This document shows positions 3,354 through 18,381 of a DNA stretch of 64,000 nt, piece by piece. The position numbers were made by a program, and so were the translations under genes. The notes under the pieces were generated by a model. The model saw only the letters and a list, made by a program, of their open reading frames with translations, ran no database searches and was not told the origin of the DNA. This stretch comes from Candidatus Paceibacter sp. Its GTDB lineage: Bacteria; Patescibacteriota; Minisyncoccia; UBA6257; 02-FULL-45-10c. The first letter of the stretch is position 1, and each line of letters opens with the position of its first letter. The stretch spans positions 58,218 through 122,217 of the forward strand of contig DYGE01000001.1 of NCBI GenBank assembly GCA_020724845.1, written 5' to 3'.

Positions 3354-4319
3354 CTATTTAATTAGTTTTTTAAACTCTTCTACCATTGGCACTTGCTCCG
3401 CCTCAACTCCGTATTCTTTGGCAGTATAATAAGCCGTCCAGTCCGCCAAAAGCAAGGAGGAAAAAATCTTATGGAAATGGTTTTTGCCATTTACGATTAC
3501 AACTTCGGACGGCAGACGCCTTTCGCGGTACAATCTTTCGGTGACGTTCATCCGTTTGGTTATCTTAGGCTGGTCGGCAACATCTTTTAGAAAAACGAAG
3601 TAAAAGTACTTGGAAAGCGCGCCAGTGGAATCTTTAACGTCAAAGCCGGTCATTTCGTTGTGGTTGAGTTCCGGGAAATAATTGATGAAAGCCGGTATCT
3701 TTCCGGTTTCATTGAATTTTATTTTCCAATTATAAGCTATTGGCATATTTCTTTCGGATGAATAAATTACCGGCACATGCCCTTTCAGTTTTCTGGCGAG
3801 GGCTTTGCCGATCCTTTCGGCTTCGTAAGATTTCATTAGTTTCGCCAGTTCGGTCAGCTCACTGCTGAATTTATTTTCTTTCATTACCGCCGCCAGTGAT
3901 TTTATTGAATATCCCAAGGCGGATCTCGGCTGGATTCCGGTAGCCGGCATTTGCACGTGCGGGACCTTGCTCTTCTTAGCGAGATCTAAGAGTTTCCCGC
4001 CGGTAGAAACAGCCGCTAAGGGATACTTCATTTTTGAGGCGAGCTTGAAGCCCTCAATAACTTCTTCGGTATTGCCCGAATACGAACTGGCGATAATTAA
4101 ACTTTGTTTTAAAACTGCGGGGCTAAGTTTCGGCAAGCCATAATTGCGGTGAGACATGACATCAAAATAGGGGTCGCGGATTTTGAATAGGTCCGCGGCC
4201 AGGTTGGAGCCGCCCATCCCAAGGACGATGAATTTCTTGAATTTTTTCAGCTTCCCGGCATTTTCAATAACCGGCTTGTATTCAAACTGTTTAGGAAAAT
4301 TTTTTATTGCTTCGTGCAT
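3354..4319 (-). CDS. Bifunctional phosphoglucose/phosphomannose isomerase (SIS-domain PGI/PMI family)
   Basis: GMGGSNLAADL SIS motif; the ~320-aa size fits archaeal-type bifunctional PGI/PMI. Confidence 0.75.
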   Translation of the reverse strand: MHEAIKNFPKQFEYKPVIENAGKLKKFKKFIVLGMGGSNLAADLFKIRDPYFDVMSHRNYGLPKLSPAVLKQSLIIASSYSGNTEEVIEGFKLASKMKYPLAAVSTGGKLLDLAKKSKVPHVQMPATGIQPRSALGYSIKSLAAVMKENKFSSELTELAKLMKSYEAERIGKALARKLKGHVPVIYSSERNMPIAYNWKIKFNETGKIPAFINYFPELNHNEMTGFDVKDSTGALSKYFYFVFLKDVADQPKITKRMNVTERLYRERRLPSEVVIVNGKNHFHKIFSSLLLADWTAYYTAKEYGVEAEQVPMVEEFKKLIK

Positions 4320-4323
4320 ATAA

Positions 4324-13732: not shown

Positions 13733-13818
13733 ACCCCACTCAACGCATGTATTATGTTGCAAGTCCATCTTCATTTTGCTATCTTACATTGAGAACTCGT
13801 AAACCAGAGACGAAGCAT

Positions 13819-14529
13819 ATGGTCAAGGCGGTGCTGTTTGATTTGGGGAATACTCTTATTGAATACCCGACACCGGAAGCGTTGAGGGAAAACTACAAAA
13901 GATTCGCCCGCGGCGAGGCGCGCCTTGATGAGGTGTTACTTGACCGGATGCACAAACTTTTGATGGAAGAGAGACGCGTCGGCTTCAAAACTTTTGAAGA
14001 GGCTACGATCGTTCGGGCGCTTTCGCGCGCGTTACGGGAGCGAGGAATGTATACCAACACAGTAGAATTGTATAGGCAAGTGGGGGAAATTTACCATTAC
14101 GGATTCAGTAAGTCCGCTACGCTGATTGATGGCGCTCAAGAGCTGTTGGAATGTCTTGACATACTTGGAATAAAGTATCGCCCTAGAATAAAGATGGGCA
14201 TTGTGTCTAACACGCCATTTCCCGGCTACCTCTTCCAAGAGGAAATGGAACGATTTGGTATTGCAAAGTACTTCCGTACTTTTGTCTGGAGTTCCGAATT
14301 CGGAAAGCGAAAGCCTAGCCCTGACATTTTTCTTAAAGCGCTATGTAATCTAGGAGTAGCTCCAAACGAGGCCGCTTTTGTCGGCGACAAGCTGGATCGC
14401 GATGTTGCCGGTTCCCGCGGAGTCGGAATGACTTCTATCTGGTTTGACCGGAAAGGAACCGGACATGATCACGACGGTTACCGCGTGACCTCGCTGAAAG
14501 AAATTCCCGAGCTTCCAGGATTATTCTAA
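13819..14529 (+). CDS. HAD-superfamily hydrolase
   Basis: FDLGNTL (motif I DxG) and GDKLDRDV (motif IV). Start placed at the internal Met that immediately precedes motif I. Confidence 0.8.
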   Translation: MVKAVLFDLGNTLIEYPTPEALRENYKRFARGEARLDEVLLDRMHKLLMEERRVGFKTFEEATIVRALSRALRERGMYTNTVELYRQVGEIYHYGFSKSATLIDGAQELLECLDILGIKYRPRIKMGIVSNTPFPGYLFQEEMERFGIAKYFRTFVWSSEFGKRKPSPDIFLKALCNLGVAPNEAAFVGDKLDRDVAGSRGVGMTSIWFDRKGTGHDHDGYRVTSLKEIPELPGLF

Positions 14530-14589: not shown

Positions 14590-15840
14590 ATGGCTCCCAC
14601 TCCGACGAAAGTTAAGCTTACTTATTATCTTTTGACTCTTTTTTCCACGCTGTCCGCTTCTTTCATCTGGGGAATCAATACGCTGTTTCTTTTAGACGCG
14701 GGGCTTTCAAACACTGCGGCGTTTACCGCGAACGCTTTTTTTACCGGCGGCATGGTGCTTTTTGAAATACCCACTGGCGTGGTCGCGGATACGAAAGGAC
14801 GAAGCGTGTCTTACGCGCTTGGATCTGCCACTCTTCTGGTCGGTACGCTAGCTTATTGGTGGCTCTGGCAAATCCACGGGCCGCTCTGGTCATGGGCAGT
14901 TGTTTCTATAATTCTAGGGCTAGGGTTTACCTTGCTTTCCGGCGCGATGGAAGCCTGGCTTGTGGATGCTCTGAATGCCGTTCATTATGATGGCGCGTTG
15001 GAATCCGTGCTCGCGCGCGGAGAAGCTCTCGGCGGGGCAGCTATGCTTGCGGGTTCAGTCGCTGGGGGATACATTGCCCAACTAACTAATTTAGGAGTCC
15101 CCTATCTTTTTCGGGTAGGTTTTCTTGGCGCGACTCTTTTTATTAGCATTTTTATGATGCACGATCTCGGGTTCGCGCCGCAGAAAGGGCTTAGTTTTAA
15201 AAATCAAATAAAATCCGTGCTTACTGCCGCGGTAAAGGGCGGTTGGCAAAATCGCTCGGTGAAATTCATGATGCTGTCCGCGCCTTTCGCCGGCATTGGC
15301 ATTTACGTATTCTACGCTATGCAACCATATCTGCTGGAGCTCTATGGCAATCCGGAAGCGTACGGCATTGCCGGACTTGCCGCCGCCATCGTAGCTGGCG
15401 CTCAAATTGTCGGAGGGCTTTCGGTTGATTATGCCAGGAGTTTTTTCCGCACTCGAACAGATTTATTGATTATGGGCGAGGTCGCGGGAGTCGCGGTGAT
15501 CGCGCTTTTGGGACTTATTGCGAATTTTTGGGTAGCTATTGCCCTACTCACGCTTTGGGGGCTTATCTTTGCCATCACTGGACCGGTGCGAGAAGCGTAT
15601 TTAAACGGGCTTATTGACTCGCATCATCGGGCGACAGTACTCTCTTTTGACGCTTTGTTGGATAGCGCCGGAGGCGCTGTAACCCAGCCGGTGCTGGGCC
15701 GCTCCGCTGACGTGTTCAGCTATCCAATTTCATTTGTAATAAGTGCGGGGATACAATTAGGCGCGCTTCCGTTTCTTATCGCCGCAAAACGCACCCGCGC
15801 GCTGTCTGATCCGATTAAGAGAGTAGCATCCAAACACTAG
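14590..15840 (+). CDS. MFS transporter
   Basis: 12-TM protein of 416 aa with MFS-like loop motifs. Confidence 0.8.
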   Translation: MAPTPTKVKLTYYLLTLFSTLSASFIWGINTLFLLDAGLSNTAAFTANAFFTGGMVLFEIPTGVVADTKGRSVSYALGSATLLVGTLAYWWLWQIHGPLWSWAVVSIILGLGFTLLSGAMEAWLVDALNAVHYDGALESVLARGEALGGAAMLAGSVAGGYIAQLTNLGVPYLFRVGFLGATLFISIFMMHDLGFAPQKGLSFKNQIKSVLTAAVKGGWQNRSVKFMMLSAPFAGIGIYVFYAMQPYLLELYGNPEAYGIAGLAAAIVAGAQIVGGLSVDYARSFFRTRTDLLIMGEVAGVAVIALLGLIANFWVAIALLTLWGLIFAITGPVREAYLNGLIDSHHRATVLSFDALLDSAGGAVTQPVLGRSADVFSYPISFVISAGIQLGALPFLIAAKRTRALSDPIKRVASKH

Positions 15841-15870
15841 CATTCTTAATGTCTGATTTTTGTCTGAATA

Positions 15871-15918
15871 AAAAAAGAAGCCCCACACCGAAGCGCAAAG
15901 CTTCTTTGTGCGGGGCTA
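15871..15918 (-). terminator. Two-tier hairpin terminator immediately after the 32-codon small ORF
   Basis: The gccccacac/gtgcggggc stem with an inner gaagc/gcttc stem, followed by a T-run on the minus strand. Confidence 0.55.
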
Positions 15919-16014
15919 TGCGAGCAGGAAGGCGGCGATGACCGCAGCGGTTATGACATACGGATAGAAAGGCAGGTACAGATCGTAATACAGCTTATAG
16001 AGCAGGTTGTTCAT
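15916..16014 (-). CDS. Small ORF (32 aa): Tyr-rich N-terminus then hydrophobic tail; GC-rich
   Basis: GGAGGAAGT Shine-Dalgarno 0 nt upstream of ATG; its own TTGACA-17-TAAAAT promoter at 16062..16090 (minus); terminator directly after the stop. Sequence MNNLLYKLYYDLYLPFYPYVITAAVIAAFLLA. Below the 60-codon cutoff of the ORF track. Confidence 0.4.
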   Translation of the reverse strand: MNNLLYKLYYDLYLPFYPYVITAAVIAAFLLA

Positions 16015-16095
16015 ACTTCCTCCTTTACAGATTGGAATGCGCAGCTTTTCAGCTTGTATGCATTTTATCATATTTATGAGTTTATGTCAAGTGAA

Positions 16096-16126
16096 ATAAA
16101 AAACCCAAAATTTGGTGATTTTGGGC
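16096..16126 (-). terminator. Intrinsic terminator after the 160-aa gene (cccaaaatttggtgattttggg + T-run)
   Basis: Hairpin plus T-run directly after the stop at 16127. Confidence 0.6.
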
Positions 16127-16609
16127 TCATGGTTTGCTGTTCAATGCGTCCTTATATCTTTCCGCTGTTTTTCTGACGATATCCAGAATCTTCTCAACGC
16201 TCCACATTGGCGGCTGATATTTGCCGTGGCCGTCCGAAAGGGCCAGAGTCGGGCTTGGAAATTGAAGGTACGGAATACCTAATTTCAAAATCTCTATGCA
16301 AACCGCGTGAGCATCCTCGCTTCCGTCATGGTAAAGAAACAAGATAGGATTCCACTTGAGCCACGTAAGCGGCGTCTTCCCCTCTCCTTTCAGGCCGAGG
16401 CCGTAGGCCAGTTTGGCGGCGCTTTCGTAAGGGACGTTCCTGATTTCAAAAAGATTCTCCCCTCCTCGGCCATGATTGGCAGTCAGCGTCAGCTTTTCTT
16501 TCTCCGGATCGTAGGTTAGGAAATAATATGACTTACGAAGTTGTTGCTTAATTACTTCCGGGTAAAGTGTAACGTTGCCGATCAAGACCTTGTTCTGGAA
16601 GTCGTTCAT
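16127..16609 (-). CDS. Hypothetical protein
   Basis: 160-aa ORF with an AAGGAG Shine-Dalgarno; no recognisable motif. Confidence 0.5.
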   Translation of the reverse strand: MNDFQNKVLIGNVTLYPEVIKQQLRKSYYFLTYDPEKEKLTLTANHGRGGENLFEIRNVPYESAAKLAYGLGLKGEGKTPLTWLKWNPILFLYHDGSEDAHAVCIEILKLGIPYLQFPSPTLALSDGHGKYQPPMWSVEKILDIVRKTAERYKDALNSKP

Positions 16610-18215: not shown

Positions 18216-18294
18216 CCGTTTCCCGACCCCTTCCCTATCAAATCTCTCAACCAAAAATTTTAAAAATAGAATAGACTTCTATTTTTTAAATTTG

Positions 18295-18381
18295 CGGAGG
18301 GGGAGAGATTCGAACTCTCGATGCCCTTTCGGACATGCCGCCTTTCCAAGGCGGTGCACTAGACCACTATGCGACCCCTCC
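18295..18381 (-). tRNA. tRNA-Ser (anticodon GGA), type II with long variable arm
   Basis: Manual fold: 7-bp acceptor GGAGGGG/CCCCTCC, anticodon stem CCGCC/GGCGG with loop TTGGAAA, long variable arm, T-loop GTTCGAATC. Confidence 0.8.

Follow-up and report, generated by a model that had tools for sequence, protein, structure and literature searches.

What is the 32-codon open reading frame (ORF) on the minus strand at 16014..15916 of the stretch of Candidatus Paceibacter sp. DNA analysed here, all 64,000 nucleotides of which are called the window: a self-contained gene for a small toxin-like peptide, as the initial annotation had it, or a piece of something larger? The analysis points to the latter; with a probability of about 80%, the ORF is a chimera that arose by a 456-bp in-frame deletion, through which the start of a 44-codon ORF was fused to the end of a lost EamA-type transporter gene. 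The reading frame extends from an ATG at 16014-16012 to a TAG at 15918-15916, and its predicted product is MNNLLYKLYYDLYLPFYPYVITAAVIAAFLLA, in which tyrosines occupy positions 6, 9, 10, 13, 17 and 19; the initial annotation had rightly counted six among the first 19 residues.

Homologues of the peptide were sought with phmmer, in which the 32-residue sequence was queried against 1.84 billion representative proteins. Besides the peptide itself, a sole true homologue was recovered, P0013, a 44-residue protein with 77% identity across residues 3-28 (library-wide E 3.8e-5); two other matches were long repetitive proteins and were rejected. When the 44-residue homologue served as query, its only match was itself. 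P0013 is encoded on L069, a 1,383-bp metagenome contig, where the same TTGACA-17-TAAAAT promoter with its TG is followed by the small ORF at 306-440 (44 codons), a 15-nt spacer carrying GGAGG, a 135-residue ORF at 456-863, which ends ...GFIAAAIAAFLLA-TAG-CCCCGC..., and a terminator. From promoter to ATG the two loci are identical at 61/76 positions (80%), a stretch that has diverged less than the ORF has at synonymous sites (proportion of synonymous differences, pS, 0.49). The intact small-ORF peptide carries on into a polar, proline-rich tail, KGYEFTPLPPLGIW, and ends in PLPPLGIW; its stop codon lies 3 nt ahead of the Shine-Dalgarno (SD) sequence of the 135-residue gene.

Window and L069 were compared by DNA alignment, by blastn and codon by codon. 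Blastn paired window 16099-15932 with L069 221-391 (77% identity) and window 15949-15907 with L069 830-872 (86% identity, E 2e-8); the two alignments overlap by 18 nt in the window (15932-15949), and the 456 nt of L069 between them have no window counterpart. At the codon level, window codons 1-25 track the small ORF, and from codon 29 onwards, through FLLA (codons 29-32) and the stop codon into the terminator, the window tracks the 135-residue gene. The intervening codons 26-28 match the 3' copy, in the transporter gene, at 9/9 positions and the 5' copy, in the small ORF, at 6/9, and the deletion junction falls in this microhomology, ATCGCCGCC, a short repeat of the form AT(C/T)GC(C/G)GC(C/G). 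In L069 the deletion endpoints fall within the two arms (377-396 and 829-848) of an inverted repeat of 20 nt, which is the geometry expected of a slipped-strand deletion, and because the small ORF and the 135-residue ORF share a frame there (306, 456), a deletion of 152 codons is in frame. By collinearity the window ORF behaves as a gene remnant, in that both of its ends match the longer L069 arrangement and the 456-bp interior is missing. The ORF that had been taken for self-contained thus has its origin in a deletion chimera, from which the 3' third of the small ORF and almost all of the transporter gene have been removed. The exact window peptide was found in two further assemblies, a 40-kb Joint Genome Institute (JGI) metagenome contig (L001/L010), where it is called as a gene, and a 3.4-kb Logan contig (L011), where a 51-codon version is called; both contigs are 100% identical to the window across the region.

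The direction of the change was judged from the 135-residue protein, which belongs to a family of 21 members, 131-178 residues long, with invariant motifs and a conserved C-terminus, AAxLL; the AAFLLA C-terminus also occurs in the family members P0015 and P0017. Pfam EamA was matched by 7/18 family members, the L069 protein itself falling below the cut-off (18.9 against 28.2 bits), and AlphaFold, run on the family alignment of the 135-residue protein, gave five helices at a predicted local distance difference test score (pLDDT) of 81.6. Foldseek and a sequence profile search returned no matches. Family sequence and predicted fold together show the lost gene to be of the EamA/DMT type, with a single putative five-helix repeat. 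The window ORF fails as such a repeat, as it keeps FLLA, or at most IAAFLLA, and has no Pfam hit; elsewhere in the window there is no DMT-like gene. It is not credible that an insertion happened to assemble a whole family member from the final codons of a 32-codon ORF, and since the 135-residue gene belongs to an independent conserved family, the long form was taken as ancestral and the window as the deletion.

We propose the following course of events. The ancestor would have been a compact cassette consisting of a strong promoter, a leader of ~41 nt, a 44-codon Tyr/Phe-rich ORF, a 15-nt spacer with GGAGG, a 135-residue transporter gene and a terminator. In the window lineage, a 456-bp (152-codon) deletion would have fused small-ORF codon 25-28, in frame, with the final 4-7 codons of the transporter gene, removing the polar C-terminal tail of the small ORF, the spacer and essentially the entire transporter. 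Intact promoter, leader, ribosome-binding site and terminator would then remain around a chimeric 32-codon ORF, and the unit can be laid out as follows:

16101..16128, minus strand: intrinsic terminator (hairpin and T-run) of the upstream 160-residue gene (16609..16127), the 5' limit of the cassette.
16062..16090, minus strand: sigma-70-type promoter TTGACA-17-TAAAAT with an extended -10 (TGaTAAAAT), 11/12 matches; both hexamers, the spacing and the TG are the same in L069.
16015..16055, minus strand: 5' leader, which contains the SD sequence GGAGG (16023-16019) and, at 16054-16043, the small hairpin AGCU-GAAA-AGCU.
15940..16014, minus strand: 5' part of the ancestral small ORF, window codons 1-25 (MNNLLYKLYYDLYLPFYPYVITAAV), with 77% amino acid identity to P0013 and a ratio of nonsynonymous to synonymous changes (dN/dS) of 0.22.
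15931..15939, minus strand: deletion junction and microhomology, codons 26-28 (ATC GCC GCC, Ile-Ala-Ala), placed by codon-level comparison with L069.
15916..15930, minus strand: final codons of the lost 135-residue EamA/DMT-type gene, codons 29-32 and stop (TTC CTG CTC GCA TAG, FLLA and stop), placed by alignment to L069.
15870..15917, minus strand: two-tier intrinsic terminator inherited from the transporter gene, hairpin 15917-15879 and T-run 15878-15870.

All of the elements that had been annotated around the ORF are present: the terminator of the upstream gene, TTGACA-17-TAAAAT with its extended -10, GGAGG, the 32 codons and a terminator that begins at the stop codon. The TG of the promoter stands one base ahead of the -10, and sites with at least 11/12 promoter matches number 7 in the 64-kb window, against 1.4 in shuffles. 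Four bases separate GGAGG from the ATG, and 47 nt separate the end of the -10 from the ATG, which leaves a leader of ~41 nt from the likely transcription start. The terminator hairpin is built of a 10-bp outer stem and a 5-bp inner stem, its first bases being the AG of the TAG, and is followed by UCUUUUUUU; the outer stem and the T-run are kept in L069 (TAGCCCCGC...GGGGCTTCTTTTTT). These signals lie beyond chance because promoter, leader, SD sequence, start codon and terminator are all kept in an independent locus. A longer ORF of 51 codons from an ATG at 16071, as called in one assembly, was considered and rejected; that ATG sits within the -10, and in L069 the frame is closed by a stop 11 codons upstream of the ATG, which favours the 32-codon start over the 51-codon one. 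Because its signals are undamaged, the remnant probably still gives rise to an RNA of ~185 nt, and perhaps the 32-residue chimeric peptide is still made. The transporter function would be gone and, most likely, so would whatever the small ORF did in connection with the transporter, whether as a cis-regulatory leader peptide or as a small subunit.

In order to judge whether the shared 5' part is coding, substitutions between the window and L069 were sorted by codon position. Over 27 aligned codons, 14/20 differences lie at third positions (binomial p = 9e-4), with 9 synonymous-only differences and 7 amino acid changes; the latter are mostly conservative (D/E, I/V, Y/F, L/F) and mostly near the N-terminus. 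Nei-Gojobori dN/dS was 0.22 for codons 2-25 and 0.12 for codons 7-25, and the other two frames of the shared DNA gave ratios above 1 and contain stops. The comparison shows the shared 5' part to be, as judged from its substitution pattern, genuine coding sequence under purifying selection across two loci. The initial annotation had named loss of the reading frame at homologous loci as a ground for abandoning the peptide; at the one homologous locus the frame is conserved, the differences being mostly synonymous and the only indel between the two ORFs being 3 nt long. The same pattern bears on the proposal that the unit encodes a non-coding small RNA of ~185 nt in which the ORF is incidental. 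A promoter-to-terminator unit without a downstream gene and with a leader conserved at 80% is what such an RNA would look like, but the coding-frame substitutions, the conservation of SD sequence and ATG, a folding energy for the whole transcript that is not significant against shuffles (z -1.5) and zero Rfam matches make it a highly improbable explanation. Two Rfam searches, one of the entire window at gathering thresholds and one of 15750-16200 at E<=10, returned nothing but a tRNA-Ser and chance-level matches.

AlphaFold modelled the 44-residue form as one helix over residues 2-30 (pLDDT about 79) with a disordered tail, so that the conserved part corresponds exactly to the helix. Read from the sequence, Tyr and Phe are spaced i, i+3/4, i+7 and i+11, an aromatic stripe along that helix, and the window peptide has a hydrophobic C-terminal half with a hydrophobic moment that increases toward the C-terminus. 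Of the hydrophobic helical tail claimed for the window peptide, the last 4-7 residues come from the fusion, and the ancestral peptide ends in a polar tail. It is conceivable that the Tyr-rich helix is a functional small membrane-associated regulator or peptide that has outlived the transporter, the fusion having replaced a dispensable tail. The expression signals are all intact and among the best of the window, the deletion preserved the frame, purifying selection acts on the first 28 codons across two loci, and the predicted 29-residue helix covers just this part. The selection signal, however, is not assignable to the window branch after the deletion; 16 C-terminal residues are lost; a further homologue is absent among 15 billion predicted proteins; and an in-frame result has a 1-in-3 chance, both L069 ORFs sharing a frame. 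Nor is the small ORF a widespread module, as it is missing upstream of four other transporter-family members, in which a promoter and short leader directly precede the gene. We regard a surviving functional peptide as unlikely.

The layout, in which promoter and leader are followed by a short ORF rich in one amino acid whose stop abuts a terminator, also fits a working attenuator: ribosomes translating the Tyr-rich ORF would sense tyrosine or charged tRNA-Tyr and thereby set how often the terminator is read through. A cis-regulatory role of this general kind is plausible in the intact cassette, where the small ORF stands 15 nt upstream of a gene; it could there act as a cis-acting leader peptide or, equally, encode a small subunit. 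In the window, however, the next genes downstream, MFS (14590-15840) and HAD (13747-14529), are both on the plus strand and no minus-strand gene follows the ORF, which excludes an active attenuator there, and the terminator is the lost transporter gene's own. The Tyr codons, furthermore, are spread in the helical i, i+3/4, i+7 pattern rather than in tandem, two of the corresponding L069 positions being Phe; the amino acid sequence as such is conserved, and the L069 leader has no significant alternative structure, its 5' region folding no better than shuffles (z +0.8). Attenuation in the window is accordingly extremely unlikely.

That the peptide is a type I toxin, a toxic small hydrophobic peptide restrained by an antisense RNA, had been suggested by its short length, hydrophobic C-terminal half, strong promoter and strong SD sequence. 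Antisense RNA could conceivably come from read-through out of the convergent MFS gene, as this ends at 15840 and has no T-run terminator on the plus strand. The evidence nevertheless speaks against a toxin: the antisense transcript that the initial annotation advised looking for has no promoter-like site on the plus strand at 15500-16500 (by consensus scan only), there are zero Pfam and zero Rfam hits, with no Pfam match to the peptide at E<=0.1, and the fold of the transcript is ordinary. The ancestral ORF, moreover, opens a transporter operon and encodes a peptide with a polar tail, and it was the fusion that supplied the final residues (FLLA) of the hydrophobic tail. A toxin is, in our estimation, a very unlikely reading, and no specific evidence supports it.

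Further searches added no member to the family. A tblastn search with the peptide across all loci gave weak matches (E 0.24-3) to one transmembrane segment of MFS orthologues, which were judged to be chance similarity between hydrophobic, aromatic sequences and count as a single event because all of those loci are orthologous; they lie in L020-L064 at about 4244-4321, residues about 82-107 (e.g. LLYVLLWQVHAPFWAWAVVS versus LLYKLYYDLYLPFYPYVITA). A back-translated degenerate pattern run on metagenome contigs gave 16 matches, all of them T-rich, low-complexity chance matches; TWY for Tyr/Phe is too permissive, and the contig collection lacks both the source contig and L069. Viral contigs yielded zero matches either to a leader pattern or to a strict peptide pattern, and blastn of the whole L069 cassette against a plasmid collection likewise yielded zero. 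The small ORF family, with its two members, is undescribed; nothing matching was found in the literature searched.

The GC-rich character of the window ORF held in part. Its GC content at third codon positions (GC3) is 72.7% against 48 +/- 5% in the genes of the window, and its 7 Leu codons are without exception CTG or CTC, a pair that accounts for 30% of the Leu codons of those genes; its total GC of 49.5% is just mildly raised, the window having 44.5% and its genes 45.3 +/- 2.8%. The L069 cassette is GC-rich between flanks of 44-45% GC, with 56% (GC3 80%) in the small ORF and 64% (GC3 82%) in the DMT gene, and its promoter and leader region has 35%. Homology between window and L069 starts at the -35 hexamer, with none upstream of TTGACA, and ends past the terminator T-run, and the flanking genes are entirely different: an OmdA/YdeI-type and an exonuclease III-type gene in L069, the 160-residue gene and the convergent MFS gene in the window, within which homologues of either L069 flank were not found. 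A unit of homology that runs from promoter to terminator and has a foreign coding composition points to horizontal acquisition, which would explain the GC3 anomaly; acquisition from a GC-rich donor is the likeliest origin of the cassette. No repeats resembling mobile-element ends were found around it.

Synteny was followed through both neighbours. The closest genome by the MFS gene, a metagenome-assembled genome (MAG) of the Parcubacteria group with 82% amino acid identity, has a 232-residue ORF in the expected place of the cassette, 57 genome loci having been compared. The upstream 160-residue gene has homologues at 10 loci in unrelated contexts, without a trace of the peptide.

Both neighbours have features of their own. 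The remaining best matches of the MFS gene (14590-15840, plus strand) are from Actinomycetota, Solirubrobacterales and Gemmatimonadales at 52-60%, and its GC is 51.8% against the gene mean of 45.3 +/- 2.8%; it was probably acquired horizontally, and together with the cassette remnant it makes the stretch look like a landing zone for foreign DNA. The 160-residue ORF (16127-16609, minus strand) has no Pfam match and 8 homologues only, at 48-60% identity. Homologues adjoin tRNA genes (L002 3789-3875, L006 4743-4814, L007 3669-3752) and, in L007-L009, a tyrosine-recombinase (Phage_integrase) gene; the window carries a tRNA-Ser(GGA) at 18294-18381. The 160-residue gene may be cargo of an integrative element. 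Downstream of its homologue in L007 (2893-4179; likewise in L008 and L009) lie 1.3 kb without called genes that contain one tRNA only, and downstream of that in L002 (4486-5120) lie 0.6 kb without called genes or an Rfam match, ahead of a gene for a class II ribonucleotide reductase; behind the reductase gene, at L002 7531-7896, is a bacterial RNase P class A RNA (120.7 bits).

Other members of the transporter family also have small or unannotated ORFs beside them. In L075 (2836-3000) a member is preceded by a leader of ~90 nt with a five-codon mini-ORF (ATG GTA GCA ACT GCC TGA) after GAGGA, which may be an unrelated leader ORF within the same gene family. Behind the half-size DMT genes of L071 and L072, at a distance of 10-25 nt, begins another ORF without annotation (L071 943-1392, L072 3430-4032; 149 or 200 residues), which could be a candidate heterodimer partner. 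In L069 itself, an exact 12-nt repeat, GCTGTTCTTCAA, occurs at 317-328 in the small ORF (KLFFK) and at 680-691 in the DMT gene (conserved LLFFN); its chance expectation is roughly 0.003-0.01 and it is not shared by the window allele. This repeat could hint that the small ORF derives from a fragment of the DMT gene, or it could be a coincidence.

Taken together, the likeliest account of the window ORF is that of a recently decayed, horizontally acquired cassette, of which the chimeric peptide may still be expressed and the function has probably been lost. Some points weigh against it. The undamaged promoter, SD sequence, start codon and frame fit retention for function equally well; the small ORF is found at only two loci, and the polarity comes from parsimony and family membership rather than from a phylogeny; L069 is a short (1.4-kb) contig of an automatic assembly; and the two assemblies that confirm the junction may share one sample.

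As a deletion relic the ORF is an ordinary kind of object, and the case is instructive for the annotation of small ORFs, with the caution that a textbook promoter, SD sequence and terminator around a plausible membrane peptide can mark a deletion scar. L069, for its part, documents a small ORF under purifying selection ahead of a single-repeat DMT transporter in uncultivated bacteria, annotated in some assemblies only, and a compact, compositionally foreign promoter-to-terminator cassette occupies two unrelated genomic neighbourhoods. On a bolder and rather doubtful view, the 28-residue Tyr/Phe-striped helix (KLYYxLYLxFYPYVxTAAVIAA) would represent an undescribed small-protein family of bacteria of the candidate phyla radiation (CPR) type on a mobile promoter-to-terminator cassette, acting either as a nascent-peptide sensor that controls a half-size DMT exporter or on its own, as a peptide in the membrane. 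Such an independent peptide, if it stayed useful after loss of the exporter, would explain the pristine expression signals in the window, and if the remnant is indeed maintained, it would be a natural case of a new micro-protein born by gene fusion.

Among known systems, type I toxins (Hok, TisB, Ibs, Ldr, Fst) resemble the window peptide in length and in the hydrophobic C-terminal half; it differs from them in lacking an antisense signal or homology, and its origin is the first cistron of a transporter operon. From a gene of the EamA/drug-metabolite transporter (DMT) superfamily, whose products here are single five-helix repeat proteins, the window ORF has its final 4-7 codons together with the stop and the terminator, but only this stub is kept. 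Small membrane proteins accompany transporters elsewhere, as AcrZ does AcrB and KdpF does KdpABC; the small ORF of L069 is alike in its size range of 30-50 residues, its single predicted helix and its place upstream of a transporter gene, but has no sequence similarity to them, and in the window the partner gene is deleted.

Nascent-peptide sensors of the ermCL/ermBL and tnaC type are upstream small ORFs of efflux or resistance genes (PMC8274638, PMC5499644, PMC8429421). The L069 arrangement is alike in having a short ORF with a conserved peptide 15 nt before a transporter gene and an SD sequence right after the stop. It differs in that 44 codons are long for such leaders, neither a stalling motif nor an alternative RNA structure could be demonstrated, its 5' region has no significant structure and four other family members lack the ORF, and the window has no gene left to regulate.

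With bacterial remnants of microhomology (slipped-strand) deletion the window ORF has in common that both of its ends have homologous counterparts in a relative with two intact genes, that the junction falls in a short imperfect repeat, that the endpoints fall in an inverted repeat (in L069) and that most of the coding sequence is gone. It differs from them in being in frame, with full expression signals around a new 32-codon ORF, and in this it resembles a purpose-built gene.
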